Counted from the first letter of the whole stretch, positions 11,501 to 44,762 are shown. The stretch: DNA of 63,836 nt, filler included, from Reclinomonas americana ATCC 50394 (GCA_048213135.1; 8 parts of 5 records of this genome joined end to end with filler, not necessarily neighbours in it); one strand, 5' to 3'. Translations and numbers: made by a program. The notes: generated by a model from the letters alone, not told the origin.

Positions 11501-13548
11501 TCAGCAGGCGGCTGCGCATTGTACCTGCAGAAATGAACAGGCGGTGAGCCTACACGACGCGGTGAGACACAAAAAGGAAGGAGAACGCAACGAGTCCAAG
11601 AACTGCGAGATAAAATCCAACAGCGGGCGCATTGTCGACTTCTTTGGTCGATTGGCCAACATCGACTCCAGCACCGCACAAGCGGTTTTGCGCACAGACC
11701 GCACCTCATTAGCGACATCTGTGTGCACAGCACACGATTTGGTGAGATCGGGGAGAGACAAGCACTGAGGCACCAGCACCACAAACCATATTCAATGTGC
11801 AAGTAATCGTCGGGGGCCTCACGCCACATTGCCAGTGCCTCGTCGGTGAGCAACACCAACGGGAGGACGTACTCTGTCATGAATGTCAGGGCGTGTGGCC
11901 GAATAATATCCCACGCGTCAGCAAGAGTGATGCTGGGGGAGGGGAAGGAGGCGACGATCATGAGTGATGCGCCCTCTCCACATGGTGGGGAGAAATGAGA
12001 ACAGCTACTCACGCGCACTCGAAAAAGGTGCATGCGTGCACCACAATCGGGTCCGACACCGAGCTCGGGTTGTCTCTCCGCAGCTGCAAGATGTGCAAGA
12101 ATGCCTCCGTGCACGGCGCCGAGCACGACTCCAAGAACCGGGCTGAAAAGAGATTGATGCGTACATCCTTGCTCATTGTTGTCATGCGACCATGTCTGTG
12201 CGGCACACAAACGCGCTATGATGAGCGATGGACGTCCATTGACACGATACACATAACATACACACAGACCTGATAAAGTACTGCGACAATGTGTGTGCCG
12301 CCGCCCTCTTCATCGTCCATATGATGTGCTCGCTGCACACGTCTGGGTGCGTGTTGCCCGGGAATGTCGGCGGCGTGAGATACAACACACGGACCAGCAA
12401 CTCGACCACAGCATTCATAATCTCGAATCTCTCCAAAAAGACCGGCGGCAATTCGCACTGGTGTGGTGGCGCGAGGTCGAGTGTCAATCACCGCGGCGGT
12501 AACGATGACAAAGGCATGAGGCACTCACCGTGGTCATGTACTGCACAATCTTCAAGCACAGCCACGTGTATGTGGCGCGCGCGGCCACCACCGGCGGCAG
12601 GCTCGGTGCGTACTCTGCGCATGTCAACGACTGCGTGAGCTGCCGGAGAAACATTTCCGCAGCACAGCCACCAACAAAACCTTTTCCGTTCAGTTCCGCC
12701 TCCAGCTCCGACACGGTGGTCTGCAGGAACCCGCCAAACACCTCAATCGACTCGGCGCAATAGGCCACCAGTGGGTGACGCTCATCCTTGCGCTTCTTTC
12801 TACAGATTCAAGGGGAAGCAAAGTGAGTGTCTGCGGGGGAGGAAGATGGAGTAAAAAAAGGGAGACGACCCACCTGTACACATAGCAGAACTGCTTGGCC
12901 AAGAGCAGACCCGCATGCACCTCCTCCGGATCGCTGCTCGCCAACAAGCGCGAGATATCGGCGAGGAGCGTGGGAATGCCGCTCTTCTTCTGCACCACTT
13001 CCACACAGTACAACAGCTGATTCCGCACAATCGGCAGCGCCACGACAGTCGCCGCCACAATGTGCTGCAAAAAGTAGTGTTTGTCCTCGTCGTTCAGTGG
13101 CGCGTACAACTCCGGAACGCCAGTCCATCTGTGGCCACAGCACAGAGAGAGAGAGAGGCAGTTGAGCAAGAGGGAGATGAGGTGGGACACGTGAGAGGGC
13201 GAGTGAGATAGAGAGCGGGAGAGAGCGGGAGTCACATTTGAGCTCTTTCACGCACCTGAAGCGGATGAGGTTCTTCAGTTGCACCGAGGCCGCTTGCCGC
13301 ACATGCGGCTCATACTGCGCGTCCAGTGACACCTCAAAGAGCACTTGGATGAAGCCAGCCGAGTTGAACAAGTGCTACCAACACACAAACACAAACAAAA
13401 GCGTGTGTCTGCACATGCGCACATGCCCATGCCCACACACCAGACGCTCACTCACCTGCTCCACGTACTCCGCCGCGCGCTGCCTCTCTGCCGCATCCGC
13501 CAGCGCCGAGTACGACAAGTGCAGAAGATGGGCAAGCTCCGCGCTCAT
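8553..13548 (-). CDS. IPO7: Importin-7/8 (Nmd5/SAD2-like karyopherin beta), about 20 exons
   Basis: IBN_N motif VRQAASVQLKNLIRFRW, MWREAPDDYL, YKEAALY, HVYPELSSDVVYLRARA, IADCFYYDPTLAL, HDLKMTCLGL, acidic C-terminus with YTSPLDEVD. Confidence 0.88.
9915..9985 (-). ncRNA. Intronic box C/D snoRNA, U61/SNORD61-like guide for 18S rRNA
   Basis: Minus strand reads AGTCT-ATGATGG (box C)...CCTTCTAAGAAGCA-CTGA (D')...TGATGA (C')...CTGA (D)-GACT; terminal stem present; the D' guide is complementary to conserved SSU rRNA CUUCUUAGAGGG; it lies in an unusually long importin intron. Confidence 0.85.
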
Positions 13549-13630
13549 CTCCTGAGTCCAAGTATACGTAAGTTCCGACGGAAAATTTCATGGCGCCAAA
13601 ATTTCGTGTACTTCTTCTTGGCGGGCCCTC

Positions 13631-16600
13631 ATGAGCGACACGATGGCCGCCGTGCGCGAGCTTCGTGCTCAACTAGAAAACGAGCTGCGTCGACAAGAGG
13701 CACTGGCACAGGCGATTGACCAAGTCAATCATCTGCGTCGACCGACTCCACCTTTATCGTCATCATTACCGCCTCCTCCGCCTCTCGTCGAGTCGCAACA
13801 GAAGTCGGTGCACGGTGGAATGTATGCGTCGGTGGTCGCCGATCTGTCGCCAATGCCTCCGTCTCCGCCACCACCACCACTGTCCTTCCACGCAGGTGCT
13901 ACAGAGAGAGATAGAGAAGAGTGCGAGTCAATGCTCTTCATCTCACACGAGTCGTGTGTGCAGATGAGGCGTTTGCGCGGCAGCCGCAGCATTCGTATGT
14001 GGAGATTGTGCCAGTGATGGCGTCGTCGCAGCAGCAGCAGCAGGAGCACAATGATGATCGTCGGTGGCGGCATCAGCGACCGACGGCGGCGGTGAATGGA
14101 GCGTTGGTGGATGAGATGGGCGGTCGACCGCGCGACTGGGAGCACTCGGCATCGTCGGTGTCGCGGCGATGGCAGACGTCGTCGGCCTCGTCGGCCTCGT
14201 CGGCGTCGAGGAGGCGGCGTGCGGGTGAGCGCGGGGAGGAGGTGGTGACGCCGGTGGCGCAGCGTGGCAGTGCGATCAGTTGGCGATCGAGTCGGCAGAC
14301 GCCGGTGGCAGAGGATCGGTTTGCGGAGGCGTTCTCGAAGCCGTCGCCGCTGGCGGGTCTCGATTCGCGCTTTGTGGAGCGGCGCAGCAATGGGGTGTCG
14401 CACGCGGTATCGCCGGTTCCGTTCTCCTCGTCGCCGCCCAGACAGCAACCGTCGCCACCACCGCCGCCACCGCCACCACCGCCGCCTGCAGCCGTCCCAC
14501 CACTTTCGGCTGCGCGGTATCCATCGTCCGCGACCAAGTTGTCGGTGAGCAATCTGCCGCCGGCAGCAGTGTCGATCGACAGCAATCGGTTGTGGCAGGA
14601 GTGGGCCGACACCAAGGTCGAGTTCTCCGGTCTGAAGGCGCTCTACAGAGAGCTGGCCGGTGCAGTGACGCAGTCCATGGTTCGGCGTGGCGTGTGCACA
14701 CGTGTTGGTGTGTGTGTGAGTACGCAGTGTTTTAACTTATCGCGCGGTGCAGGAGGCGATGCGTGGCTTGCGCAATCGGCTCGACGAGATTGTCGATCGC
14801 GAGGCGGCTGTGGGCAAGGCAGAACGAGCGATGGGTGACGAGCAGCACCGCATGGCNNNNNNNNNNNNNNNNNNNNNNNNNNNNNNNNNNNNNNNNNNNN
14901 NNNNNNNNNNNNNNNNNNNNNNNNNNNNNNNNNNNNNNNNNNNNNNNNNNNNNNNNNNNNNNNNNNNNNNNNNNNNNNNNNNNNNNNNNNNNNNNNNNNN
15001 NNNNNNNNNNNNNNNNNNNNNNNNNNNNNNNNNNNNNNNNNNNNNNNNNNNNNNNNNNNNNNNNNNNNNNNNNNNNNNNNNNNNNNNNNNNNNNNNNNNN
15101 NNNNNNNNNNNNNNNNNNNNNNNNNNNNNNNNNNNNNNNNNNNNNNNNNNNNNNNNNNNNNNNNNNNNNNNNNNNNNNNNNNNNNNNNNNNNNNNNNNNN
15201 NNNNNNNNNNNNNNNNNNNNNNNNNNNNNNNNNNNNNNNNNNNNNNNNNNNNNNNNNNNNNNNNNNNNNNNNNNNNNNNNNNNNNNNNNNNNNNNNNNNN
15301 NNNNNNNNNNNNNNNNNNNNNNNNNNNNNNNNNNNNNNNNNNNNNNNNNNNNNNNNNNNNNNNNNNNNNNNNNNNNNNNNNNNNNNNNNNNNNNNNNNNN
15401 NNNNNNNNNNNNNNNNNNNNNNNNNNNNNNNNNNNNNNNNNNNNNNNNNNNNNNNNNNNNNNNCAGCAGCAACAGCAACAATACGACAGCGATAGGTGGC
15501 ATGATGAGCCCGTCAAACTCTCGTCGCGTTCCGAATCACCGCCCACGCGTGGCTTTGCTCACCAGCAGCAGCAGCAGCAGCAGCGTGAACGAGAGACGCA
15601 TCGACAGGACGCATCCATGCTACCGCACATCAAGGAGGAAGTGCAGGCCACCGCACAAGAGAGCAAAGAGCTTGCGGCGCAAATCGAGAGCGCCGCCAGC
15701 GACATGATGCGTGTGCAGGCGCTGGTGGAGCAGTCGCGAGCCGCAAGTCAGAGGTACGTGCAGATGTGTTTGGGCCAGCAACGCGGAAATTCGCACGCAA
15801 TCCTCACCTGGTACGTAGGGGATTCTCCACGCTGGACGAGGAATTGCGACTGCTGGAGAACAGCCTGCGTCGTGAGGTGAGGGAGTTGCGCGCATAGATT
15901 GCCCCATTCTCCGCTCACTCGAGCTGGCGACCTGCAGGTGATGCGAACGCATGGCAGAGGCGCCGAAGTCGAATCGCTGCAAGAGGAGAACTCGAGGCTG
16001 CGAAAGCGCATTGAGTTGCAGTTGCAGAATGCCGCCGAGTTGTCGCGTCGACTGCACACCCGTCAGCACAGTGACTCGCCGACAAATGAGGCGGCGGCAG
16101 CCGCTGCAGCGAGTGAGGTATGGTGTCGGTCACTCGATCGGCAGAAAGAGAGATTTCTTCGCTCTGTAACTCACGTGCATGACGCGCGCAGTCGCCGTTG
16201 CTGGCGCTGCTGACGGATGTGATGCGCGTGGTGGCCATGGTGTTGGATGAGAAGAAGCCGGCTGCCGAGCCTTCGCTCTCGTCTCTGTACGAACTCATTG
16301 GGTCGGTGCCGAGATCCACACCGCTCTCCAACGAGGTATGCGACACGCGTCGACGCCGCGGCGAACGCGCGCACGTGACTCACAGACGACAAACTGTCTG
16401 CAGGCGGAGATTCGACGCTTTGCGGTGACGGCCATTCTCACACCACTCAATCATCTGCTGCTGCGACAGCACGCGCTGGAGCAGCTGGCGAGCCGACCAA
16501 GTGGCCCGCCTCCGGAACGCACACAGAGGGCAACATCAATCCCGCCGCCGGCGAACGGGCATCCGCGGAGGACGGCCACTGTCGGTGTCAATGACGACGA

Positions 16601-18697: not shown

Positions 18698-18751
18698 CTC
18701 CGATCGTNNNNNNNNNNNNNNNNNNNNNNNNNNNNNNNNNNNNNNNNNNNN

Positions 18752-18763
18752 TTAATTAATTAA
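18752..18763. other. Artificial six-frame-stop linker TTAATTAATTAA in an N gap (also at 30930, 34122, 44807, 54886, 60479, 62679)
   Basis: Identical 12-mer centred in 100-nt N spacers. Confidence 0.95.
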
Positions 18764-18807
18764 NNNNNNNNNNNNNNNNNNNNNNNNNNNNNNNNNNNNN
18801 NNNNNNN

Positions 18808-18977: not shown

Positions 18978-21900
18978 ATGCCTGCGCGATGGCAAGTGCA
19001 AGTGGAGATTGTTGCGTTTCTCTCTCTCTCTCTCTTTGTTGTGCGCACGTGTCTTCCGCAACTGAGCGCGCACACGCACACGCGCACAGGTTGAGGCGCG
19101 TGAGCTCAAAGGCCGCGACCGCTCCGGCACAAGGTTTGCACTTTCTTGTCTCTCACTCACTCACTTTCACTCACTCTCTTACACACGCGCGCGACACTCC
19201 AGCGACCCTGTCATCAAAGTCAAAGTCGGCGACAAGTCGCAGCGCACAAAGACCGTGAAGAAAGTGCGTGCATGCACAAACTCCGCCGCTCACTCTCTGC
19301 CTCTCTCTCTCTCACACACACGTGTGCGTGCGTGCACAGGTCAACTCTGCTGTGTATGACCACCTCATGTTCTTTGAGATTGACTCGGACTTGCGTGAGA
19401 CGCGATGTTTGATTCAGGTTGAGTGATGCATGCATTCAGCTGTTTGCATTCTTCCTCAACAAGTCCTTACCGATTTGGTGACACACAGTGCTTTGATGCC
19501 AACACCATCACTCGTGACGTGCTCATTGGTCAGTTTGAGGTGTCGCTGGACTACATCTATGGCGAGCCCAATCATGAAGTGTGGCGACGATGGGTGTGTG
19601 TTGCATGATTCGTCGCTCTCCCTCCCCTTCCCTCCTTCCATTGTCATTACTCCCTGGTCATTTGCAGTCTCCCTCTCCTGCTCTACTTCTTCTCCTTCTC
19701 CTTCTTCTTCTTCTCCTTGCTCTTCCGTTGCCCGGTCTTCCGCGATCGCCTTCTTGTTCTTCGTTTTCTTCTCCTCCGCGTGTTATCACCTTCTCTTATG
19801 ATCTCCCGCATCCCTTTTACCCTCCCCTCACTGAATCCCACCCAGGTGGTACTGCTGGACCCCAAGAAACACCAATCCGAAGTGCAGGGCTTTGTCAAGC
19901 TGTCGGTCATCGTCATGGGACCTGGAGACACCACCGGTCAGTATACAACAAGTCTCCATGCTCACTCACGCTCCCGTGATTTGACGTCTCACGCCCTCCC
20001 CGCGCAGCACCGCATCCGGACCTCGACGAGGAAGAGGAGGGCGGGGCGATTGATTCGCTGCAGTCGATGGTGCTGGCGCCGCCCGATTTTCAACGACAGG
20101 GCGCCGAGTTGCTGGTGCGCGTGTACCGAGCCGAGAATTTGCCAAAGATGGACTCTTGTTGCGTCAGCCATGCCACCTTCTCCCTCCTTCTTCCGTTCAA
20201 CTCCTCACCCCATGCGTTAATCCAGTCGGCAAGATCGATGGATACGTGGCCGTCAATTTCGCCGGCAACCCCACTCTCAAGACCGCCATCAAGAAGAACG
20301 AGTACAACCCGGTGTGGAACCAGGAGCTCGTGCTGCCCGTGTGGCTGCCGAACTTGAGCGACAAGATCGAGATTCTCATTCGCGACTGGGATCGCATGAA
20401 CAAGGACGACACCATCTCGCGGCAGTACTTCACCTTTAGCGACGTGCAGCTGGAGGGGTTCACACCGCGCTGGATCAACCTGTATGGCGCGCCGTTGAAT
20501 CCGTCATTCCGCGACAAGGCAGTGCGCTGCATGCGCTCTGGCAAGGCCGAGCCCACCGAGTACCACGGCCGTGTGCTGCTGGCCATGACGCACCGTGCCT
20601 CGGATAATCCCCTGGTAACCTCTCTCTCTTTCTCTCTCTTCGATCTCCTCCACCTCCTCATCACTTCTCTTTCCTTGATGCAGTTCGGCGGGCCAAACAA
20701 CATTGCTCCGTGCGAACTGCCGCGCACCCGTGAGTATGTGCTGCGACTGGATCTGTACCAGGGCACAGATTTTCCGGCCAATCGCAGTCAGTCGGTGCGC
20801 GTCGGCGTCACCTGGGGACAGCACGTGCTGAAGGGCAAGGCCGTGGGCATTCGCAACGGATGTGCGTTGTGTCATTTATGTACTCCCTTTCATGACACAC
20901 TCTCTCACTTTCGGCCATCCGCCACAGCGTACCCATGGTACGAGTCATTGCAGGAGATCCGCGCCACATTCCCGCACAACATTGACCATGTGCCAGACAT
21001 TGTTGCGTGACCGACCGTTGCACTTTATCTCTTCTGCATTCCCCTGACCGCGCACGCGAATGGAACAGATCCTGTACTTTTCCATCAAGGGCTTTGGCAC
21101 CACGTCGCGTATCGGTTACTTGCGCTACAGGGCTGCGTTGCGTCAAACTTGCCGCGTTTGCGTCTCTCTGCATTTTCTGCGATCCTCATCTCGTGGCAGC
21201 GATGTGGTGGGGTTCGACAAGCCGCCAGAGTGGCGCTGTGTGACGGCGAATCCCTTGGCGGCTGCGTACGAAAAGGATCGCATCCCCGGATTTGCTCTCA
21301 TCCGGTCCGTGTGCTTGTCTCTCTCGCGTTCGTCCCTTTCGTCATATACTCACGTCTGCGTGCGTTCGTAGCCTGGCGTTTGGACCGGCCGAAAAGGCGC
21401 CTGTTCCCCGACCGCCCATTGCACCGCCGAGGTTCGGTCGTTTCCAGCTGCGCGCGCACATTTACCAGGCTCGTGACCTGCCGGCCGCGGACGACACGGG
21501 CACCAGCGATCCGTACTGCCGCGTAATTTTTGGCTCCAAGGTGAGAGGCCTGCACTTCCTTTCGACTCGGACCACTCGTGTGTTCTCATCATGATGCAGA
21601 GTGCGGAAACGGGTGTTCGTTTCGCCACCAACTACCCTCTGTGGTACGAGTCGCTCAGTCTGGATGTGGAGATTCCCATTGACATGAACTACGCGCCGCG
21701 GATTGTGCTGCAGGTGCGCTGTGGGAACGACTCGGTCTCGTGTCTCCTCCCATTTTCCTGCTCACATCGCGCGCGCTGCAGGTGTGGGACCGCGACAGCA
21801 CCCTTGACCCCGACGACATGATTGGGCGCTGTGACATTCCGGCCAACACCGCCGGCAAGGGGTGGCCCGGCGATCCCAAGTGGTACGAGTTGTACATGAA

Positions 21901-24900
21901 TGACCCGAACGACACCATGGGTGGCGTTCTTGCGTCGTTCCAGTTGATTCCACGCGAGGAGGCAGCTCGCATGCCACCGCCCGGCTCCATCAAGCCGCGC
22001 ACACAGCCGTGCGTCTTTGAGATCTCGGCCATTGGCCTGCGCAGTCTGCTGCCGGCCGCCGACGGGAGCGGCAGCAAGTCGCGGGCCAAGAACCCGCGCA
22101 TCGAGGTCAGCGGTCTCATGCCTTTAATGTCTCACTCCTCCTCTGACTCGTCGCGGCACAGTTCGATTGCGGAGACTCCAATCGTGTGGTGTCGTCGGCA
22201 CGTTGCTCCCAACCAACTCCCGAGAATCCCAACCATCTGGAGGTGTGTGTGTGTGTATATCAGAGCATGGTTGTCTGCGTGCCTGTGCATGAATCACCGA
22301 TGCCTGTGTCGGGCAGGCCGTCTACCTCGAATGCGAGTTGCCTCTGAACGCGCTTTTTGCACCGGCCATCAATGTCCGTGTGTTTGACGTCGGTGGTCTT
22401 CTCGGCGGCGACCGACTCGTCGGCGCCTCGTCCATCTCGGTGGCACCATACATGCCGTGGTCGAATCTCGATATTCCCAAGGTCTGTTCTTCCCTTGTTA
22501 GTTTGCCTTTCTTGCTTTTCTCGCTGACCCTTCATTCTCCCATCACAGGAGAGCCTGCCGCCGCCCTTTGATGGTGATATTCCTGGCGCCGCCGGTCTGC
22601 CCGGATTTGATGACGACGTGGTGTCGGCAGTGCACCAGATCGAGATCGTGGATCCCATTCCCGAGGATCTGCGCGCCTGCAACGAAGTTGTTGGCGATGA
22701 AATGCATTTCATCACCGCGGGCGAGCCGAAGCGCACGCTGCCGGAGGTGGACGACACGCACTTGGGTGGTTTCGAGAGCACGGCAGCCGACGCACTGGCC
22801 GGTCGCAAGACTGTAAAGGTGGAGCTGGAGCACACTTTCAAGCAGCTGCCCTTTGACGAGTATCGCCTCTATCGGTTGGTGGATTGTGCTGGGCTAATTC
22901 GTTTCGTTGTATCACCGCACTGACTCGCGATGCGTGCACCGTCCAGCGGCACCACTCGGCAGCAGGGAGGCTACTTTACGAAACTGTGGGCCACCATGGA
23001 GAAGAGAGGCGTGCAGAACCCCAAGCACAACAGGTTGCATTCATGTCTGCGTGCTTCTCTTCACTGCATCATCATCATCTCCTCATTGTCGGCATGTGGC
23101 ATCGCAGCGGCAAGTTCAAGGGCCGTTTCCGTGTCATTCCGGCAGAGCAGTTGCGCGGTTTGCGTGATCGCGCCGAAAGCACTGTGTCGGCTGCTGCTCC
23201 GGTCGTCCCACCGACCACAATCACCCCGTTTGACATTTTCGACGATCCACGTCCCGGCAGTGGCCTTCCGTCGTTCACTGCTGGTGCCGCTGCGGCAGCT
23301 CTGGCCGCCGTCAGTGCGCCTCGCGTGCCGCCCGTGCGAGTACCGTCTGGCAGCTTCACCGCCGCCGCTGTGGCACCTGTTCCACCACCGGCGCCTGTGC
23401 TGGCACCGGCTCCGACAGAGACCGTCGAGTTGATCACCAGCCGTTTCGTCCCCCATTTCATGCCCATGCCTGTTGCTTCTTGGTGTGTGCTCACCACGGT
23501 GTTGCGCAGAGGAACTTCGTCGCATGTACACGTCACGTGATTTTGTGGTTCGCGTGCACGTGGTGCGCGGTCGACAGCTCGTACCAAAGGACAGCAACGG
23601 CAAGAGCGATCCGTACCTGGTGTTCCGCACGGGCAGCGATCGCCGAGCCAGCGCCAAGTTCATTTCGTGCGAGCCCGACGTGATCAAGGCGACTCTGGCG
23701 CCCGACTTTTGGACCAGCCAGGAGCTGCGTGCGACCATTCCAGGTGACTCGCTGCACATCGAGTGCTACGACTGGGACGCTGTCGGCGACCACGACTTGA
23801 TCGGCGCAACTATTGTCGACCTGGAAAATCGTCTCTTCAGCGAGGAGTGGCAGGCGTTGGAGGCCAAGCCGTTGGAGCAGCGCACATTGTGGGTGTCGAC
23901 GTCCAGCTTCCCGCAAGGTCGCCTGGAGCTTGCCATCGACATTCTCACGCCGGAACAGGCGGCAGCGCAGCCGTTTGTTCGTCTGCACAAGCCGGAGGTT
24001 CGCAAGCACGAGCTGCGCGTGATTGTGTGGAACACGGTTTGTCGCATGCCGAGGCAGTGTCGCTGCAGCGGTTCGTCACCGGATCTGATAATGTGTTGCA
24101 CTACAGGAAGACGTCGTCTTCAAGGACGCAAACATGAGTGATCAAATCCTGCGTGCAACTGCACTGTGGAACAACGAGAAGCTGAAGACGGACACGAACT
24201 GGCGCTCGATGGATGGTGCGTGCCGGGCGTGTCCTCTGCGCTAATGTGCGCAAGGTTTATTGATGTTGCTGCACAGGCAAGGGCTTCTTCAACTGGCGCT
24301 GGGTCTTCAAGGACGTGGAGATCCCGTGCAAGAATCCGCGCTTGCGAGTGCAGATCTACGACCGCGACATTTTCAAGCCGAACGACTCGATTGCCGAGTC
24401 TGTTCTCAACCTGCGGCCGCTGTTCCGCAAGGTCTACAACCAGCGAGCGCGGCAGGAGATCCCACGACAGTGGATCTCCATGACTGTTGCGCATTTCGTC
24501 TGCCTGCTGCGCTTGTTTGCCTCGTGCTCACACTTCCATGTCGTCGCACACAGCACCCCAACTTCCAGGGCGTGCAGGGCAAGGTGGAGCTGACAGTGGA
24601 GCTGCTGACGGCCGACGAGGCAATGCGCTTCCCCGGTGAGTGGCTGTAAGATAGTCTCAAAATTAGCTCAGCATGTGCGCTCATCTCTTGTCAACAGCCG
24701 GGCAAGGTCGCGATCCGCCCAACGAGAATCCGCATCTCGACGACCCGCCTCGGCCACCAACCAGTTTTGCACCGTGGCGAGTGGACAAGTACGCACAGAA
24801 TTTCTGGATGAAGTACAAGGTGTGTGTTCGTCTTGGTTTTGTTCTCCGTCGCACAACCCTGCTCAACGACTTCCACAGAAACGCTTGATTCTTATCGGAA

Positions 24901-24947
24901 TCGCCGTCCTCGCCCTGCTCATCTGCCTCCTCTTCCTGTTCATCTAA
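18978..24947 (+). CDS. Ferlin, copy A (multi-C2, FerI, C-terminal TM; no DysF seen)
   Basis: C2 starts [133 protein letters not shown]; terminal TM helix. Confidence 0.93.
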
Positions 24948-25035
24948 CCGGTGATCAGGAGTAGAATAAAACCGCATACACTTTTTTGGTCGCACGCACA
25001 CATAGACATGAGTCTCTCTCTCTCTCTCTCTCTCT

Positions 25036-28000
25036 CTACAGGAGCACAAAAATGAGAATAATGGCCAAGATGATGATGCCGGCAATAATGAGCTTTGTCT
25101 GTACATGGTCATGGCACGCCGTGAGCAACACACACAAACTCGAAAGAACACGCAGTGAGGCGAGTCAACAAACCTTGTACTTGAGCCACCTGCAGCAGAC
25201 AAGCCGAGGGAACAAACAAGTTAGCAGATGAAACAGATGGGGGAAAGAAGCGTGGCACTGCACTGGCGACGCAACCATGTCTGCGCGTACTTGTCCACTC
25301 GCCACGGAGCAAAACTGGTTGCCGGTCGTGGCGGGTCGTCGAGGTGCTGTGGTGGGATGCAAAAATGCACCATGTGAGCGACAATCGGGGAATGCAATCG
25401 GCAAGCACGAGATGGCGACGTACAGGGTTCTCGTTCGGAGCCTTGCGCGCCTCGCCGGCCGGATAGCGACGTGCCTCGTCTGCAAAGCGACGCAGAGTTG
25501 AGCATGCGTCACACACGCCACACACACACACAATGCACACATATGAAATCAAGTACCGTCGGTCAACAGCTCCACCGTGAGTTCGACCTTGCCTTGCACA
25601 CCGGTGAAATTAGGGTGCTGGCAGCGCTCGGTAAGTCAATCGACACAATCCTGCGTCACTCTAAATGAACACACACATACCGTCATGGAGATGAACTGGC
25701 GCGGAATCTCCTGTCGCGCACGTTGATTGTACACCTGCAAGCAAGTCAGCGTCAGCATGCCAATAAAACAGGAGAAGTGAACGTACCCGGCGGAAGAGCG
25801 GTCTCAGGTTGAGCATGGCCTCGGCGATGCTGTCGTTCGGCTTGAAGATATCGCGATCGTAAATCTGAAACAGAGAACGGTGAGTATCTGGGGGAGAGAG
25901 TGCAGAGAAGAAACATCACTGGTGACACACACACCTGAATGCGGACGCGGGGATTCGCATTGGGGATCTCCACGTTCTTGAACACCCAGCGCCAGTTGAA
26001 GAATCCCTTGCCTGGAGATACAAAGAATGAGTGACAGGGACCATAAAAAAGGAATGCCGGGGCGACGCGCACCATCCATGGAACGCCAGTTGGTGTCGGT
26101 GTCGTGCCTATCGTTGTTCCACATGGAGGTGCCGACCAGCTTGATATCACTCATTTCCTGTGTGGGGCACATGCAGTGGATGAGTGGTTACTGTTGACAG
26201 CGACAGTGTGCACCGTTTAGCAAGGCGACGCAACAGCATCCTTGAAGACGACATCGGACTGGTGACACGAACAACAGACACAGCAGGTAAGAAACCACGC
26301 CCATGTGGGAGCCACATCATTCACACTCGTCGCGTACCGTATTCCACACGATGATGCGCAGTTCGTGCATGCGGACTTCGGGCTTGTGCAGCTGCTGGAA
26401 CGGAATGTGCGCTGCCTGTTCCACCGTGTAAATGTCGACGGCCAACTCCAGGCGACCTTGCGGGAACTTGGACTCGGTTGTCCACAGCGTGCGGTGCTCC
26501 AGAGGCTTCGGCTCCAGGCCCTGCCAGTAGGGCGAGAAGATGCGGTTCTCCAAGTCGATTGTTGTCGTGCCAATGAGCTCGTCCGCTCCCACCGTGTCCC
26601 GGTCGTAAACATCAATGTACAGGTTATCGCCTGATAGAGAGAGAGAGAGAGAGCGAGGTGAGACCACAAACACGGGTACAACGGAGTGCGCGACCGACAA
26701 CGCACCGGGAAGCGTAGCGCGCAGCTCGCGACTCGTCCAAAAGTCCGGAGCCAGAGTCTGCTCAATGGTTTCGGCCTTGCATGTGACAAACTTCTCTCCG
26801 GGAGTCTTCGCCGCACCGCAGCGGAACACGAGGTAGGGATCGCTCTTGCCGGTGCGGTCTTTCGGCACAAGCTGGCGACCACGCACAACGTGCACGCGAA
26901 CCACGTATTCGCGCGTTTGATACAACGCTTGCAGCTCCTCTGCGAACGCCAGGTGGCGTGAGGACACGCGACATGCAGTGAACATTGACAAACACAAGTG
27001 AAAAACACACCAGTGGTCATCAGCGTAATTGGCTCAGTCGACTCCTCTGGCATGCCGTCGACCTGCAGGTGCACGCCCGACGGGCCCTCGTTCTCCAAGT
27101 CGGCATCAAACGCTTGCGAAGGGCTGCTCGGCTCCGGCGGTCGAATATCCGCGAGAGAAGTCGAGCGAACAGTGCCCAGATGTGGTGGTAGTTGACGGAT
27201 GCGCTCCACTGGCACCACACGGAAGTGTCCCTGTGCGAGGATCACACAAGGGTGAGCACATGGAAAGGCGATGAGGGGCAACAGCAACAATACTACATGC
27301 ACACACCTTGAAACGACCGCTGTGGGTGTAAATGTACGTGCACGCGTGCATCGCATTATCGAACGTGAGAAGCGAAAAGCACTGACGAAAGAAACACACT
27401 TCCCGGATGGTACTCACCAGATGCGCTTGGCGCTCTCAGGATCGCGATCGACCTTCTTGCTCCACATCTTGGTGAAGAAACCACCCGACTGGCGGGTGCT
27501 TCCACGGTACAGCTTGAATGCGTCGAACGGCAACTCGGGGAAATCGTGCTCCAGCTCGTGCTTCACCAGCGCACGACCGGAAAGCACATCGGCACCGTTG
27601 CCTTCGAAACCGCCGAGCAGCTGATCGTCGACCTCGGGAATGGTGCGCTCGGGTTCGCCGCGCGTGCGGAACTTGAACTCGTGAGCAAACTGGAAGTGTG
27701 CGAGGAAGAGTCAGAGCATGTTCCGCGGCAAACACACGACCAAGACAAGCACGTGCCAACCTCCTCGTTACAGGTACGGAGGTCGTCAGGAATGGGATCG
27801 ACAATCTCCTGCACCTCACCCACTCGGATCATGTCATCGTCGAAGCCAGGCAGATCACGAGCACCGGGAATGGGCGCATCAAAGAACTCGACAATGTTGT
27901 CCTTTGGAATCTCCATGTTTGACCACGGCATGTAGGGCGCAATCGGAATGGATGTCGAGCCAAGCAGACGCCGTCTGCCAAACATGCCCGCATCGTGGAC

Positions 28001-31000
28001 ACGCACATTGACAGCCGGAGTATACAGCGGATTCAGTGGCAATTCGCATTCCAGATACACGACCTGCGCGCAGCAATGGTCAAAACAAGAGTCACACAAA
28101 AAAGCAAAAACAAGAGCACTCTTATCTCTCACCTCAAGGTGGTTGGGGTTTTCGGGACTCGGTGTGTTGCACGAGCGCGTCTGCATCATGGGGAAGACAG
28201 AGCTGCCGGCGTCAAACTGCACACAACAACGACCTCAGAGTCAGGGCCACGAGCACGCAGTCGCTTGGTGCTAGCTGGGAGACTCACGTCGATGCGCGTG
28301 GTATTCGGGCGCGATTTGGTACCATTCTCCTCGCCAGCTGGAATGAGCTCACGCAGACCGACGGCCTGAATCTCAAAAATGCACGGTCGCATTTGCGGTT
28401 TGATGGTGGGCGGTAGCGGAACACGAGCGGCCTCCTCGGCCGGGATCAGCTGGAACGAGGCCAGCACCTCACCCTCGGTGACCGAGTTGTCGTCCATGTA
28501 CAGTTTGTACCATTGCGGATCACCGGGCCATCGCTTGCCCAGCTTCTCGGGTGCCACCTCGGCGCGGCCCAGCAGATCGTCGGGATCCAGACCAGGGTCC
28601 ACATCGTACACCTGCAAAACAGCGATGACTTTCAGGGAAGGCACGAGTGAAAAATACTCCACTGCCGCTGTGACGAAACTTGCAATACCACACGCGGCGC
28701 AAAGTTGAAATCGGTGGGGATTTCGACATTGAATGCGAGCGTCTCGTACCACAGCGGGAAGTTGGTCACGTAGCGCGGCGTGGTTTTCTTGGACTGCATC
28801 ACGGTTGTTGTCAGTGAATGCACGCACTATGGGAGAGTCAAGAACACGTGCGCGCACCTGACTGCCAAATGTCACTTTGCAGTACGGGTCACTCGTGCCG
28901 GATTCGTCGCCAGCCGGCAAGTTGCGTGCCTGGTAAATGTGGGCACGCAGCTGATACCGACCAAGACGAGGGGGCGCAATGGGCGGCCGCGGAATCGGCG
29001 CCTGATCGGCAACACCAAAGTCAAGGCTGTGCAGATGCGGCGGTGAGCCTAAAACCGCAGAGCACCACAACAAAGCGTGAATAAGCAGCTTACCGGAAGA
29101 GGCAGAAACCGGGTGGTTGTTCCTTGTCGTAGGCGGCCGACATTTTGTTGGCAACAATCGGTTGCCACTGCGCAATGTGGCCCCATCCAAACACCTCTCT
29201 GCCGCAGCGTACCGAAATTGCACACATGAGCGCAACAAATAAGCTTCACGAGGCGATAGCCAGCCAGCAACTCAACTCTGCCGTGTATCGCAGATAACCA
29301 ATCTCTGATTTGGCGCCAAAACCCTTGATGTAGAAGCGGATAATCTGCACCGAAAAAAGTGTGAGAGAGAGTCACCGCGAGGGCACCACAACAGCGAAGA
29401 GTCGTGCGCAACAATGTCGGGAATAGAGGAGCGATCGGCCGGATACTCGACACGCATGTCGGGGATCTGCTCGTACCACGTGTAAGCGCCGTTGCGCACC
29501 GACACCGCCTTGCTCATGAACGAATAGGGGCCGATCGAGATCTGCGCCTGCACGGCCTGACTGCGGTTGGCCGGGAAATCGGCGCCCTGATACAAGTCGA
29601 AGCGCAAAATGTACTGCTTGGTCGGTGGCAAGGCACACGGATCGAGTCTGCTCGGCGCGTTGGAAGTCTATCGCATCCAGCAATCAGTCAGTGTGCGAGA
29701 TGACTGACTGCAGCATTCAAGCATCTGCGACGACTGCACCTGCGGGTTGTCCTTGGCCGCCACCTTCATGGCCAGCAAGATGCGACCGTGGTACTCAGTG
29801 GGCTCGGCCTTGCCCTTGCGTAGCAGATTGTGGGCCTTGTCACGGAACGACGGTTCCAGCGGCACGCCGTACAGGTTCACCCAGCGCGGGTTCAAACCGC
29901 CCTCCAACTGCACATCGGAGAAGCGGAAAAACATGCGTGCAATGGTCTCGTCCTTGGTGCCGCGATCCCAATCCTGCGGGGCGACAGAATGTCAGCCGAG
30001 TGGAGCGTGGAGAGAGAGCACACATATTAAGACACAATAGAATACTCACTCGAACAATGACTTCGATCTTGTCGCTGAGGTTCGGCAGCCACACCTGGAA
30101 CTGCAACTCGTTATTCCACAGTGGGGTCAGTGTGCTCTTCATGATTTCGGTTCGGCGCTCGGCGTTGCCGGCGGTGACCACGGCCACATACGGATCGCAC
30201 TTGCCGACTGCATACGGATGACGTTCAAAAAACTTTCGAGTGGACCAGGGCATGCGTGGCACAACGCAACAAGTGTCCATCTTCGGCATGTCTTCACCGC
30301 GGTACACGCGCACGTACAGCTCGGCACCCTGTCGCTGCATACCGGGCGGCATGAGTACGTACTGCTGCAGTGATTGGAGGGAGCCTTCCTCCTCCGCATC
30401 GACTTCCGGTGCCGGTTCTGCACGCACCGTACAATCGCACATACATCAGAAGTAATGAAAAGGGAATGGAAGCAGGGAGGTCGGTTGGATTACCGATGGT
30501 GTCACCGGGTCCAGCGACGGTGATGGAGACACGGACGTAGCCCTGAATCTCATTGCCGTGCTTCTTGGTCTCCATAATCGCCACCCACGTGCGCCAAATC
30601 TGATGGTTCGGCGCCGTGTACACGTAGCTGAGATCGATCTCGAACTGGCCTGCAAACGGCAAGCAACACAGCAGTCAGCATCGGCAAGAGAGAGAGAGAG
30701 AGAGAGAAAGAGAACAAGGCGATCAGAGACAACAAGCACCGACCAGATGGGGCTTGTAAGCCAAGGATTTTTGAGCTCCATATCAGTGAAAGAGAGAGAA
30801 GGCGAGATGTTCGAAACGAGATGCATCATGAACCACTGAAAGATCCATCCTCTGTCCCTCCTCCCTTTCCCCTCCATCCCCCCCTNNNNNNNNNNNNNNN
30901 NNNNNNNNNNNNNNNNNNNNNNNNNNNNNTTAATTAATTAANNNNNNNNNNNNNNNNNNNNNNNNNNNNNNNNNNNNNNNNNNNNCAAACCCACCAATGA

Positions 31001-31316
31001 GCTCATTGCGCGTAAAGGTGTTGGCGTCGAACACACGAATCACACACGGCGTCTCCTCCAGTCCCGTATCAATCTGGAAAAACATGAGATGGTCCCACAC
31101 GACATTGGCCGCCTTCTTTGTGCCCTTGGTCTTCTGCGTCTGCTTGCCCACAGTCACACTGGCCACGGGATCCGAAGTGCCGCTCCGATCGCGACCTTTC
31201 AACTCCCGAGCCTCCAGCTATCATGCATGATCATTCAGCAATCGGGGCTCATGTCACCACAGAAAGATCAAGACAGAAAGAGAACTCACCAGCTCAACCT
31301 GCACCTGGTACGGCAT
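25036..31316 (-). CDS. Ferlin, copy B (paralogue of copy A, convergent)
   Basis: Same motif series: [108 protein letters not shown], then TAG. Confidence 0.93.
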
Positions 31317-34077: not shown

Positions 34078-34177
34078 NNNNNNNNNNNNNNNNNNNNNNN
34101 NNNNNNNNNNNNNNNNNNNNNTTAATTAATTAANNNNNNNNNNNNNNNNNNNNNNNNNNNNNNNNNNNNNNNNNNNN

Positions 34178-37017: not shown

Positions 37018-37833
37018 TCACATGTCGTCTGACACGGGTTCCGCTCGCTCCACGTCACCATCCTCCAGATCATCGGCAGCGACCGCGTCGCCCGCCATTC
37101 CCTTTTCTACCACCACCACCACACCGCTCATGCGCGTGCCACTGGACGGCTTCCTATCGGCGTGGAAGCAGCGGCGGCACACGGCGACGTACTTGTCGGC
37201 ACCGCCAATGACCTCCACCGCACAGTCGCTGACAATGCGCTTGGAGAAGTGCGCATCCTCGCCACACGACATGCACACGGCAGTGAGCTTGACCACTGCC
37301 TCGGCCATTGGCAGCAGCTCCAGCACAGCACCGAATGGCTTTTGCTGGAAGGTGCCATCGAGGGCGGCCACAATCACCGTCTTGCCGAGGTTGGCGGCCT
37401 CGTCGCAGAATGACACCAGATCGGGGAAGAACTGACCCTCATCGATGCCAATGCAGTCGTGCGAGGCCACCAAGTGCGCTGCCTCGCTCAGTCGCTCGCA
37501 CGGGAACGCCGAGTACAGTTGTCTGTTGAGAACAGAGAGCGAGAGAGCGAGTGTGAGGTTTTCGCGCGCGCATCGCATTCGCATCATGACGTGTCTGCGC
37601 AACTGGTCGTGCGTGGCCACACAGTCGTCTGAGTACCGCACATCGCGCTTGTACTTGAGCACAAGGCACTTGCGACGCGCCAGTGTGTGTCGCTTCACAC
37701 GTCGCAAGAGCTCAGTCGACTTGCCCGCGAACATCGGGCCCAAGATCAACTGTTTGCGTGCGTGTGAGTGAGTGCGTGACAAAGAGAGAGTGTGTGAGAA
37801 TTGGCGCGAAACTTCAACACTTCCACGATCCAT
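37018..37833 (-). CDS. TK1: Thymidine kinase (TK1 family), 3 exons
   Basis: LILGPMFAGKSTELLRR, VATHD, IGIDEGQFF, VIVAALDGTFQQKPFG, KLTAVCMSC, VIGGADKYVAVCRRCF. Confidence 0.97.
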   Translation of the reverse strand: MDRGSVEVSRQFSHTLSLSRTHSHARKQLILGPMFAGKSTELLRRVKRHTLARRKCLVLKYKRDVRYSDDCVATHDQLRRHVMMRMRCARENLTLALSLSVLNRQLYSAFPCERLSEAAHLVASHDCIGIDEGQFFPDLVSFCDEAANLGKTVIVAALDGTFQQKPFGAVLELLPMAEAVVKLTAVCMSCGEDAHFSKRIVSDCAVEVIGGADKYVAVCRRCFHADRKPSSGTRMSGVVVVVEKGMAGDAVAADDLEDGDVERAEPVSDDM

Positions 37834-37882
37834 GATTGGCGCGCTCAACAGGGTTTGCGATGTGTGCGAGTGTTTGCGTTGA

Positions 37883-37892
37883 TTTTGGCGCG
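37883..37892. promoter_or_regulatory. E2F-type motif TTTTGGCGCG about 50 nt upstream of the TK start codon
   Basis: Matches TTTSSCGC; a second TTGGCGCG lies directly before the ATG. Confidence 0.4.
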
Positions 37893-37967
37893 CGCGGGCG
37901 TGGACAAACCACAATGCATTTGTCTATTGTCCCGTTGTGTTGCGCTGCGTGCAGTGAAGGGCACACA

Positions 37968-40900
37968 ATGGAGCGTTTCATCCTCCTGTTTATCAAAAAG
38001 TACCTGGTGAGCATTGCATGCGTGCATGAAAAGAAAGAGTGGAGAAATATGTGATTGTTAATTTGTCCGATGACTTTCTCTCCCTCTCCCCGCCTCTCTC
38101 TCTCTCACACACCCACACACTCACACCATTGCCTTGTTGTGTGTGCGTGTGGCGACTTGCGCAGGTGGTGTTCGTCAAGGTGCGGGACATGGCGAGGATG
38201 CGTGTCTTGCGCTCTCTCGCACACTCTCTCACTGTGTGTTTTCGCGCACAGAACTTTCACCGTGATCAGTTCAAGTTCTCGCTGCTAAAGGGACAGACGC
38301 AATTGACGGGTCTCGGTCTGTGAGAATGCTGCTGGGATCATTTTTCCTTGTTTGTTGTTGTTCATTGCGGCAATGTGGCAGAACTCAATGTGCATGTGAT
38401 CAACGACTTATTACGAACCGCGGGCCTCGGGCAGTTAGCTGTAACGCGGGCCTACATTAACAAAGTCGTCGTGCATGTTGCGTCTTGAGGCGCCTGTCGA
38501 TCAACGAGAAGCTGGTGTTGAATTGCGGCGATGCAGGTGTCGGTCACCAAGCTCAAGAGCAAGCCGCTGTACTTGGCCGTCGATCAGGTGGAGATCGAGA
38601 TCGAGGAGACGGAGACGTGGGAGAAGGGCAAGGGGCTGCTCAACAAGCTGTTTGGCCTCGACAAGAAGAAGAAGAGGTGAGGCGACTGCACAGCTACCGA
38701 TGGCCTGTGCTGGTGCTGAATGTAGTGTTCTCGATTGGTGCAGCGACAAGCCCAAGCCACACAAGTATGATCTCGGCGATCGCATTGGAGACGGCATTGC
38801 GCTGAGTGTCAATCAGCTGTCGCTTGGCGTGCAGTTCGGGAAGCCCTCACTCGGCATCAATCGGTGCATTTTTGCTGCAATCATCATTGCGTCTCGTGTG
38901 CCTGTGGCCACTGACCACGTGTGTGTGCGTGTGTGTGGGAACCACAGACCTGCGCGCCTGGTGGTGGAGCTGGCGGGCATTTCGATGAATGCCACGAACT
39001 GCCGATGGGAGGTGGTGCCGCTGAAGGAGTGCATCCCCAACGTGACGAAGCGCATGGAGGAGATGTATGTATTCAAGGTCGCCAAGGTCGAGCGACTGCG
39101 GGTGTACTTGACCACGCAGTCGCGCGGTGTGCTGTCATTGGTGGAGCACCTCGGAGCGATCATTCGCATCGCCATTCGCAAGAAGGTGCAGGATGTGGCC
39201 GTCATCTCCACCAACATCGATGTAATTGTCGACCTGGTCAACGTGCGCATCGACGCACGCACCATTCTCGAGCTCGGCTGCCTCATGTCCTACGTTGGAC
39301 TCGCGTTCCTGCGGAAGCCTCCATCGGCCGCTGGAGGCGCGGTGGGTCGCGTTGGCGGAAGCGCAGTGGGATCATCGTCGGAGGAAAGGTACGGTGTGGC
39401 GGTTCTTACAATCCCTCGAATGTGTGACGTGACCTCGCTCCCGACACAGTGGCATGCATGCTGGATCATCGATGGAGGACGATGACATGCGGGCCATTCA
39501 GGAGGCGCTGGCAGTGGACGAGGTGCGATGTCGTATGCAATGTGAGTGCTGAAGCACAGCACCTGTTGCTCATTTCGCTTGCAGGAGCTGGGCATGATTG
39601 GCGACACGGACTCGGTGATGGACACGGAGGTGGAAGACTCAAGTAGGGTGCGTAGTTGTGTGCGCGCACGTTCATTCACGGATGGTGAGGCCTCATGTTG
39701 TGCTTCACAGGCCGTCGACGATCACTACGTCCCCGATTACGGTTCCGATGTGGTGCCGCCACTGGTGGCCAACGTGTTTGTCGACAACGTCTCGCTGATG
39801 ATGGTGGAACCGTCGGTGGGCGATGTGGTGTTTGGCGTCACCGCGAGGGACATTAGGGTGCGTCGTTTGGTTCATATTTCCGCTCGTGTTTCCCTTGTCC
39901 TGAGAGGTCTTTGCAGTTATCGGTGATTCAAGTGGACGCTGAATCAGCACCTGTGATGCAAGCCATCATTCCCGAGTTCACGCTCGTGGACACGCAGCCG
40001 GGCGCGAATCACTTCAAGGTTCACACAGCGGAGGCCGAGGAACGGGATCGTTGCGTGTGCCTCGCCTTGTTGTACAGACTTACCGCTTGCTATTGCTCGA
40101 CTCACCGTCATGTATCTCGCACAGCCACATCAAGGGAAGTACGCGGAGCGTTGTGGCCTCGCTTCCAACGCTACGATTTGCCTTCATGGATCGAGGCACG
40201 CGCCTTTCCCGGTGCGTCGGCTGTTGTCCACTCTCCCGTGTTCCGTCCACTGAGTGCTTTCTCCGCACAGAATTCCGTCGGCAGGGTCTGCGTTTGCGCT
40301 TTGTGCTGGAGCCGCCACCAAAGGACAAGATTGTCGAAGTGCACCTCTACAATCTGGCGGTATGTGTGTGTGCGAATGTGTGTGCGTGCGAAGCGCGTGT
40401 ATCGCTCACGGTGTGCACAGGTCGACATCAATCGATCACTGCTGGAGACTCTGGTGACCATGGCGCGTGGAGTGGTGGCCATGCTGCCGGACTATCTGTT
40501 TGCCACTGGCTTCCCACCCTTCAAGCTCGACATGCAAGTGCACCTGCAGGTGGACGAGTTCAAGCTGCGCATTCTGCCGTCCACATTTTTCGAAAACTCC
40601 CCGCCGCTGGAGATCGACGTCTATGACTGTGCGTTGCTTCCCCATTCACACATGACACCATTAAGTGTCCCAGCTGTGAGATGTGTGTGACGTACTGCCA
40701 CTGCAGTGATTGCCATGATCAATCCGCATCTGGAACTCGACACTATTCCGTTTGACGAGGCCTTTACGGCGCACCAGGTCGCTCTCGGCTCCATCAAGGC
40801 TCCCGAAGGTGCGTATCTGTGACAACTGGTGCGTGCGGTGAGTGCGGATAGCTCATGCGCAAGTGCGTGCAGTGTCACCCAAGGCGCGCGAACGACTGGA

Positions 40901-44520: not shown

Positions 44521-44762
44521 ATGGGCAAGCGACCGCGTGATGCAGCAGACGATGACGACGATGCCGACGCTGATGCAGAGGAGCGTCGGCAACGTCGACA
44601 TCGACTGCGCAACCGGCCTGCGTTGCTGGAGAGTGCGGCGGGCGTCGAGGAGGCAGTGGCGCGGCGGGAAAAGCGTCGCCTGAATCATAAAAAGCGTCGC
44701 AAGTACAAGGAGAAGCAGAGGGAGAAGGCAAAGGAGCAAGCACAACACGACGAAGAAGTGGA
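44521..44762 (+). CDS. N-terminal fragment of a basic, probably nuclear protein
   Basis: MGKRPRDAADDDD...RREKRRLNHKKRRKYKEKQREK, open into the gap. Confidence 0.5.

Follow-up and report, generated by a model that had tools for sequence, protein, structure and literature searches.

Two classes of 5' splice site, tied to the exon-final base, at shared intron positions in paired ferlin-like genes of Reclinomonas americana

The stretch of DNA analyzed here, referred to below as the window, comprises 63,836 nucleotides (filler included) from Reclinomonas americana ATCC 50394 (GCA_048213135.1), joined from 8 parts of 5 records. It carries two paralogous genes, A and B, which adjoin tail to tail and, judged from their sequence, are ferlin-like. 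Both are rich in short introns. We observe directly that the donors (5' splice sites) of these introns form two motif classes, that class is tied to the last base of the exon (position -1), that the two classes exchange at homologous positions in A and B, and that they do not differ in the remainder of the intron. The evidence comes from these two genes, a single intron elsewhere, and counts of motifs over the 64 kb.

Two ferlin-like genes and their introns

Open-frame pieces of A pair with B piece by piece at 45-80% identity, and the spliced proteins are 61.4% identical (812/1323 aligned columns). C2 domains are encoded by two exons of A (20228-20614 and 23512-24036), with a weak C2 match in a third (24279-24485), and the last exon encodes a hydrophobic tail, as read by eye. 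A and B are co-linear over their whole length with an external ferlin-like protein of 1303 amino acids, P0001, which has five C2 stretches and weak matches to FerI and Ferlin_C (24.1 and 28.3 bits, below Pfam's cut-off). The best external ferlin match found by protein search was 48% identical, and no close relative appeared in that search. A metagenome search for related loci yielded 9 loci, all 27-30% identical and none of them a close relative.

Introns were placed by hand from the reading frame, GT...AG ends and the match to the paralogue, and were spliced by coordinates; the junction calls rest on frame, homology and the GT-AG rule. All 53 curated introns have GT...YAG ends (50 CAG and 3 TAG), in models that were built under that rule. 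Lengths of 52-98 bases are found in 51 of the 53, and each stretch called an intron breaks the frame or contains stops. Seventeen intron positions are common to A and B, 8 are private to A and 11 are private to B, a high intron turnover for two proteins that share 61% of their residues. Assembly gaps, each made of a 12-base spacer (with stops in every frame) that is flanked by 44 N on either side, occur in ten places, among them 30886-30985, 18708-18807 and 34078-34177. Because the first of these sits inside intron 2 of B, the length of that intron (345) is only nominal.

Junctions were also called with our own protein-to-DNA spliced aligner, which accepts GT donors (or GC donors, with a penalty) and AG acceptors and has no further knowledge of motifs. 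Guided by the paralogous protein, it recovered 25/25 curated introns in A and 26/28 in B. The external guide P0001 (48% identical in one exon) recovered 22/25 in A and 24/28 in B, and a second external guide, P0002, recovered 21/25 and 17/28, respectively. A third guide, P0003 (37% identical), recovered 7/25 in A, which sets the limit of the method. At least one of the external guides P0001 and P0002 exactly recovered 49/53 introns, including 12/13 with a donor of the second, shifted class described below and 37/40 of the others; those missed were B12, B14, B28 and the shifted B27. The B27 junction, at 25275, is the least certain of the set: P0001 took a donor at 25263, and the curated junction keeps the length of A, which is uninterrupted there.

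The initial annotation of this DNA had drawn on seven pairs of homologous introns. All the junctions it quoted are present in the sequence where it had placed them, and a four-way protein alignment (A, B, P0001 and P0002) is gapless across the junctions of all seven pairs.

Donor classes and the exon-final base

We classified donors as canonical if they have G at +5, as shifted if they have T at +3, G at +6 and no G at +5, and as other if they fit neither rule. The 53 ferlin donors comprise 35 canonical, 13 shifted and 5 other sites. Nine shifted donors read GTTGCGT or GTTGCGC, two read GTTTCGT and two read GTTGAGT. Their positions +3 to +7 (T, G/T, C/A, G, T/C; n=13) mirror positions +2 to +6 of canonical donors (T, mostly G, N, G, T/C; n=35), i.e., the conserved T-N-N-G-T core lies one base deeper in the intron, at +3 to +7. 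Alignment on this core sets G(-1) G T G N G T of canonical sites against G(+1) T T G C G T of shifted ones. Within the shifted heptamer, G occupies +4 and C occupies +5 in 11/13 donors each.

The classes differ sharply in the base that precedes the cut. G is found at -1 in 2/13 shifted donors and in 35/40 other donors (Fisher p=3.5e-6). The two shifted donors that do follow G, at 19418 (CAG/GTTGAGT, the slash marking the junction) and 25275 (ATG/GTTGCGT), each occur in only one of the paralogues. Conversely, G is missing at -1 in five canonical donors (19264, 20862, 30049, 28287 and 25423). With two shifted donors that have G and five canonical donors that do not, the link between class and -1 is a strong tendency and no rule.

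The 17 positions common to A and B fall in the same alignment column and the same intron phase in both genes, and donor class differs at four of them. These are exactly the four pairs for which the initial annotation had claimed a change of class at the same codon position, and the spliced-protein alignment confirms the claim in both column and phase. In every switch the exon of the canonical copy ends in G, and that of the shifted copy ends in T, A, C and T, respectively. Two of the changes are synonymous, as had been noted: CAG/CAA (Gln) and ACT/ACG (Thr). A difference at -1 is seen in 4/4 class switches vs 2/13 same-class pairs (Fisher p=0.006); in this and the preceding test paralogous introns are counted separately, are not independent observations, and are few. 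Three other shared positions (20158/30270, 21002/29412 and 21137/29276) are shifted in both copies, with a base other than G at -1 in both and with identical phases, again as first described. At 20158/30270 the split codon T/TC encodes Phe, and P0001 has the same residue there.

Because donors of both types occupy the same intron positions in A and B, the classes interconvert. That they do so together with -1, as the initial annotation proposed, holds for all four switches among the 17 shared positions, with the qualification that the seven exceptions given above, which it did not list, make this a tendency. Shifted donors make up 10/34 donors at shared positions and 3/19 at private ones. As 10 of the 13 shifted donors stand at shared positions, they are older than the duplication, and the two proportions show that they are no recent wave.

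Apart from the donor, introns of the two kinds look alike. Their lengths do not differ (Mann-Whitney p=0.97), the acceptor is CAG in 13/13 shifted vs 37/40 other introns, and the last 20 bases have a pyrimidine content of 0.60 vs 0.63. A branch-like CTSAY lies 10-35 bases before AG in 9/13 shifted vs 32/40 other introns, as a motif match only. We compared intron interiors, trimmed by 9 bases on the donor side and 6 on the acceptor side, by all-against-all blastn and global alignment. The matches were confined to 13-31 bases of CT/CA low complexity, and the top match joins a shifted intron to a canonical one. Mean interior alignment scores were -0.095 for shifted-shifted, -0.107 for shifted-canonical and -0.112 for canonical-canonical pairs.

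The shifted motif is also frequent outside the two genes. The window contains 66 copies of GTTGCGY, compared with 37.5 +/- 6.3 in dinucleotide shuffles, and 0/100 shuffles reach 66. Under a second-order Markov model, GTTGCGT is the most enriched of the donor-like heptamers (35 seen/12.3 expected, about 2.8-fold), on a level with GGTGAGT (25/10.4, 2.4-fold) and GGTGCGT (36/16.3, 2.2-fold). Broken down by preceding base, GTTGCGT was seen/expected 8/2.3 times after A, 9/3.4 after C, 17/3.9 after T and 1/2.7 after G; that is, HGTTGCGT is enriched window-wide and GGTTGCGT (1/2.7) is not. In total, 1/35 copies of GTTGCGT in the window is preceded by G. Outside the ferlin-like genes the figure is 0/27, against a background of 17% G before GTT (one-sided binomial p=0.007).

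The enrichment of GTTGCGC is weaker (31/19.8), and outside the ferlin-like genes 8/24 copies follow G, with no such bias. Within predicted exon chains outside these genes, GTTGCGT occurs 7 times in sense and 2 times in antisense orientation (p=0.18, few copies), and GTTGCGC 5 and 6 times. Since GTTGCGC shows neither a strand bias nor a -1 bias there, most of these copies are probably not donors. The chains were produced ab initio from codon usage, by a procedure that placed 33/46 predicted ferlin introns exactly, and serve as a rough guide outside the ferlin-like genes only. A local coding-potential donor caller, imprecise at 34 true/97 called at its loosest cut, made 8 calls with the shifted motif (1 with G at -1) and 37 with the canonical motif (14 with G) outside the ferlin-like genes, which lends weak support to the same pattern.

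A shifted donor was located in one independent gene, a thymidine kinase (Pfam TK, E=4e-58) at 37021-37923 (-). It has a single predicted intron, its best protein matches are 66-72% identical, and the spliced protein is gapless at the junction when aligned with 6 homologues. The genes and the donors discussed above are collected in Table 1.

Table 1. Genes and donors in the window; donor intervals include the -1 base, and a slash marks the junction
Feature	Position	Strand	Donor and class	Remarks
Ferlin-like paralogue A	18978..24947	+		ATG to stop; 25 introns, 1364 amino acids; curated model, terminal stop only
Ferlin-like paralogue B	25036..31316	-		ATG to stop; 28 introns, 1327 amino acids; curated model, terminal stop only
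A1	19010..19017	+	T/GTTGCGT, shifted	Phase 0; partner B1; exon end ATT; model and alignment
B1	31283..31290	-	G/GTGAGTT, canonical	Same phase as partner A1; exon end CTG; model and alignment
A14	21713..21720	+	G/GTGCGCT, canonical	Partner B11; exon end CAG
B11	28673..28680	-	A/GTTTCGT, shifted	Exon end CAA, synonymous (Gln) with CAG of A14
A20	23442..23449	+	C/GTTTCGT, shifted	Phase 1; partner B17; recovered with guide P0002
B17	27004..27011	-	G/GTGTGTT, canonical	Phase 1; partner A20
A23	24485..24492	+	T/GTTGCGC, shifted	Partner B24; exon end ACT
B24	25674..25681	-	G/GTATGTG, canonical	Exon end ACG, synonymous (Thr) with ACT of A23
A7	20157..20164	+	T/GTTGCGT, shifted	Phase 1; partner B4
B4	30264..30271	-	T/GTTGCGT, shifted	Partner A7
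A10	21001..21008	+	T/GTTGCGT, shifted	Phase 0; partner B7
B7	29406..29413	-	T/GTTGCGC, shifted	Partner A10
A11	21136..21143	+	C/GTTGCGT, shifted	Phase 2; partner B8
B8	29270..29277	-	A/GTTGAGT, shifted	Partner A11
A4	19417..19424	+	G/GTTGAGT, shifted with G at -1	A-specific; recovered by both guides; possible two-register intermediate
B20	26228..26235	-	T/GTTGCGT, shifted	B-specific; A uninterrupted there; spliced lengths agree
B27	25269..25276	-	G/GTTGCGT, shifted with G at -1	B-specific; curated model; no external guide recovery
Thymidine kinase donor	37597..37604	-	A/GTTGCGC, shifted	Phase 2; intron 37603-37523; exon end CCA; independent gene

Some single sites in and around the two classes are worth recording. 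The donor CAG/GTTGCAT at 23034 (+) has a shifted-like start, lacks G at +6 and has a fully paired CAG/GT; its partner in B (27417) is canonical, and 23034 may be an intermediate or a decayed form. A canonical donor of the form GTGCGTTGY recurs at 20862 (+), 26705 (-), 10585 (-), 40629 (+) and 51051 (-), with T at -1 in 3/5, and its core seems to reach +8; only 20862 and 26705 are curated. Inside intron A1 (19011-19089), CCGCAAC at 19056-19062 is the reverse complement of the intron's own GTTGCGG-like donor start. The A1 donor could be sequestered in a hairpin with it; by eye, no such complement was seen in the other shifted ferlin introns.

Elsewhere in the window, ab initio models suggest four more genes. 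An importin-like gene (8783-14486, -) was named by eye, and a search of representative proteins returned 2 matches, of 73 and 1321 amino acids (28% identity). A large gene at 38522-43790 (+) has a PH-like end, also named by eye. The model at 44925-46894 (-) encodes a long low-complexity protein whose start resembles a MADS box by eye only, and that at 49319-51607 (-) is ferric-reductase/NADPH-oxidase-like, with a weak FAD_binding_8 match. A weak match to a C/D-box small nucleolar RNA model at 9908-9992 (-) (SNORD121A, 26.6 bits, E=1.3, below gathering score) lies in a predicted long intron of the importin-like gene. The palindromic hairpin at 44551-44602, on both strands, matches a microRNA precursor model with 35.6 bits against a threshold of 69 (E=9e-4) and is probably just an inverted repeat.

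How the shifted donors may be read

We give about an even chance to the reading that these are ordinary short U2-type GT-AG introns, about 60-80 bases long, with two alternative registers for recognition of the 5' splice site. The best reading of how this happens is that the same U1 (and later U6) would engage the shifted donors one base out of register. The canonical signal is G/GT(R)NGT, and that of the second class H/GT-TGCGT, realized as GTTGCGY, GTTTCGT or GTTGAGT. In the shifted register the first G of the intron would sit opposite U1 C9, the place that the exon-final G takes at canonical sites. A G at -1 would be unneeded, since the first intron G holds its place. It may even be selected against, perhaps because the reader could otherwise settle in the wrong, canonical register, and the observed exclusion of G at -1 fits selection against sites with that capacity.

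Change of class could proceed through a site that fits both registers (G/GTTRNGT), as at 19418 and 25275. Gain of a T after GT would make a canonical site fit both registers, and -1 would then be free to leave G. It is plausible that G/GTT... sites such as 19418 are stepping stones of this kind.

Pairing with U1 was evaluated for the textbook sequence of its 5' end (PMC4856993), which is assumed here and may not be that of the host. The 13 shifted donors can form on average 6.3 U1 pairs in the shifted register vs 3.9 in the canonical register. The best U1 partner among them is 19418, with 10 possible pairs and -9.2 kcal/mol in a register with a bulge.

Several observations weigh against a simple displacement of the U1 helix. 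The pairs that are possible in the shifted register are scattered and not stacked. By nearest-neighbour calculation, the predicted U1 duplex energy is -1.08 kcal/mol for shifted vs -6.62 kcal/mol for canonical donors; as 500 random 12-mers of the region give -1.60 +/- 2.28 kcal/mol, shifted donors do no better than these. With the textbook 5' end, which may differ from the host's, the shifted helix did not come out stable enough for recognition. The C found at +5 in 11/13 shifted donors is not mirrored at canonical +4 (A10, C11, T11, G3; p=0.0024). Across the window, GTTGCGT is enriched 2.8-fold and GTTGAGT 1.3-fold, with GGTGAGT and GGTGCGT alike (2.4 and 2.2). A plain shift places -1 opposite U1 U10 and would favour A there; T, A and C are all enriched instead. 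No small nuclear RNA (snRNA) was found in the window at gathering scores, and relaxing the limit to E up to 5 gave five weak matches, none of them to an snRNA. To these points must be added that the paralogous introns are non-independent and few. The initial annotation had argued for one spliceosome with two registers rather than a mobile intron family; the second half of that argument stands, and the first is not borne out by pairing with the textbook U1, which fits shifted donors no better than random sequence.

Unlikely, and still to be taken seriously, is a separate reader: a second RNA or factor, e.g., a U1 variant complementary to GUUGCGY, some other small RNA or a protein, would recognize the shifted donors, with the remaining spliceosome common to both classes. 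Two 5' splice site codes would then co-exist, and G at -1 would be excluded to avoid competition from standard U1. A distinct reader stays in play because textbook U1 pairs poorly with these donors, C at +5 is unmirrored in canonical donors and -1 shows no bias toward A. In its favour, the shifted heptamer is tighter than the canonical one (G at +4 and C at +5 in 11/13 donors each, with no such preference at the mirrored canonical position), and a hypothetical U1 with C8 changed to A would strengthen predicted pairing with shifted donors to a mean of -3.3 kcal/mol and weaken that with canonical donors to -3.1 kcal/mol. However, even this variant pairs modestly, and the window, which is all that was covered, contains no snRNA match and no such RNA. 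In the tunicate Fritillaria, according to PMC13326754, the U1 5' end is strictly conserved despite massively altered splice sites, so that on that account a lineage-wide change of 5' splice site needs no new U1. The most specific form of the proposal, in which a dedicated small RNA complementary to GUUGCGY, be it a variant U1 or a novel snRNA, reads about a quarter of all introns, is rather doubtful.

The register could also be unchanged, with GTTGCGT a strong intronic signal that is read later or by proteins and that makes the exon-final G dispensable, as a perfect GTRNGT would in canonical donors. The other donors are in keeping with compensation of this sort between exon and intron: the intronic part is complete (GT[GA][CA]GT) in all 5 canonical donors that lack G at -1, all 5 donors with a weak intronic part have G at -1, and in the pair 22106/28287, where -1 changes from G to C and class does not, the copy without G has the better intronic match. 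As an account of the shifted class, however, it is improbable. A neutral -1 predicts 17% G, and the 0/27 found outside the ferlin-like genes and 1/35 overall amount to exclusion; moreover, the G-T of the core at +6/+7 instead of +5/+6 is left unexplained.

It is very improbable that the junctions are mis-placed, with the true donor a GC three bases on (GTT/GCGT, giving a GC-AG intron) or with stretches that are no introns at all. A slide of three bases preserves the frame, GC-AG introns occur in many eukaryotes, and guide P0002 took a GC donor at 21005 for one intron. Yet the residue that such a donor would add is missing in the paralogue with a canonical donor (19011 and 24486), in the uninterrupted paralogue (26234 and 25275), and in external ferlins (20158 and 21137) and the 6 thymidine kinases, and GTTTCGT and GTTGAGT have no GC at +4. 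We therefore rejected the GC donor, whose added residue lacks a counterpart in homologues; at 21002/29412, the pair to which the 21005 call belongs, the comparison of extra residues gives no decision. Stretches without introns are contradicted by the finding that the called introns all break the frame or carry stops. Scarcely credible, and likewise rejected, is a mobile intron family (introners) whose copies brought their own GTTGCGT-type donor: the same heptamer at many intron starts does resemble the shared end of an element, but interiors are dissimilar with equal mean scores across class pairs, the two classes agree in size, acceptor and branch-like motif, and 10/13 shifted donors stand at shared positions, four of which are canonical in the other copy.

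U12-type introns were rejected as well. Neither RTATCC nor the full U12-type sequence RTATCCTT is found at any of the 53 donors, and the U12-like branch site TCCTTAAC is found in 0/13 shifted and 1/40 other introns.

Significance and comparison with known systems

About a quarter of the introns examined seem to use a single displaced heptamer, and registers of this kind are known as rare exceptions. The class has a clean signature at the exon-final base, and the old paralogues provide direct evidence for change of class at one position. If the pattern extends genome-wide, Reclinomonas would offer a natural system for studying how the cut is placed despite an out-of-register recognition helix and would allow one to ask if the choice of register rests with U1 only; gene-prediction programs that were trained with a single donor model would give wrong scores to a quarter of the introns in such a genome. 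If a dedicated reader exists, this would be something categorically new: the U2-type and U12-type introns would be joined by a third class, which would exchange freely with the canonical class at the same position, the exclusion of G at -1 keeping the readers apart.

U12-type introns, which convert to U2-type over evolution, also represent a second, discrete class of 5' splice site beside a major one. In the present case, unlike theirs, acceptor and branch-like motif match those of the major class, and RTATCC is absent. Introner elements are mobile intron families in some algae, fungi and other protists, and share with the shifted introns the feature that many begin with the same short sequence. 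In contrast to introners, the introns described here have no common interior, belong to the ordinary size class and stand at positions common to old paralogues.

Two lineages have given up the standard splice signal and still have a conserved spliceosome with a standard U1, namely Fritillaria borealis (PMC13326754) and the hemistasiid diplonemids (PMC12621601). Their genomes, like that of Reclinomonas, tolerate 5' splice sites that the standard U1 helix does not explain; they differ in having lost GT-AG, whereas all 53 introns here retain it and the departure is a discrete displacement of the core, by one base, in the shifted class. Our literature search, judged from listings that cover few subscription journals and no supplementary files, did not bring up any lineage reported to have GTTGCG-type donors in abundance, and the matches to GTTGCG in those listings were primers and unrelated sequences.

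A shifted (+1) base-pairing register between the 5' splice site and U1 snRNA was reportedly described by Roca and Krainer in 2009, and a register with a bulge at +2/+3 by Roca et al. in 2012. For the bulge register, Table 3 of PMC4856993 gives 68 predicted human sites. The shifted donors resemble these in that a donor GUU is followed by RNGU, with one U looped out. The bulge register, however, favours G at -1, because -1 stays opposite U1 C9, and here G is excluded (2/13 shifted donors, 1/35 copies of GTTGCGT). It fits only the two G/GTT... donors, at 19418 and 25275.

The shifted U1 register of human cells is nearer. According to PMC4856993, experiments in human cells have established both shifted and bulged U1 registers, and the validated noncanonical registers, taken together, make up about 1.5% of 5' splice sites. 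Both systems have GU at the cut and an intronic consensus that lies one base further in (GUUGCGU here and GUNAAGU-like in human), and the first intron G occupies the place where the exon-final G normally pairs, with no G at -1. Human shifted sites pair well with U1 through AAGU, unlike GUUGCGU, which pairs poorly with textbook U1. The frequencies also differ, at 13/53 donors in two genes here vs about 1.5% of human sites, and few heptamers in the window are as enriched as the one found here. Of the mechanisms known, the shifted U1 register comes closest, and the present case differs from it in scale and in motif.

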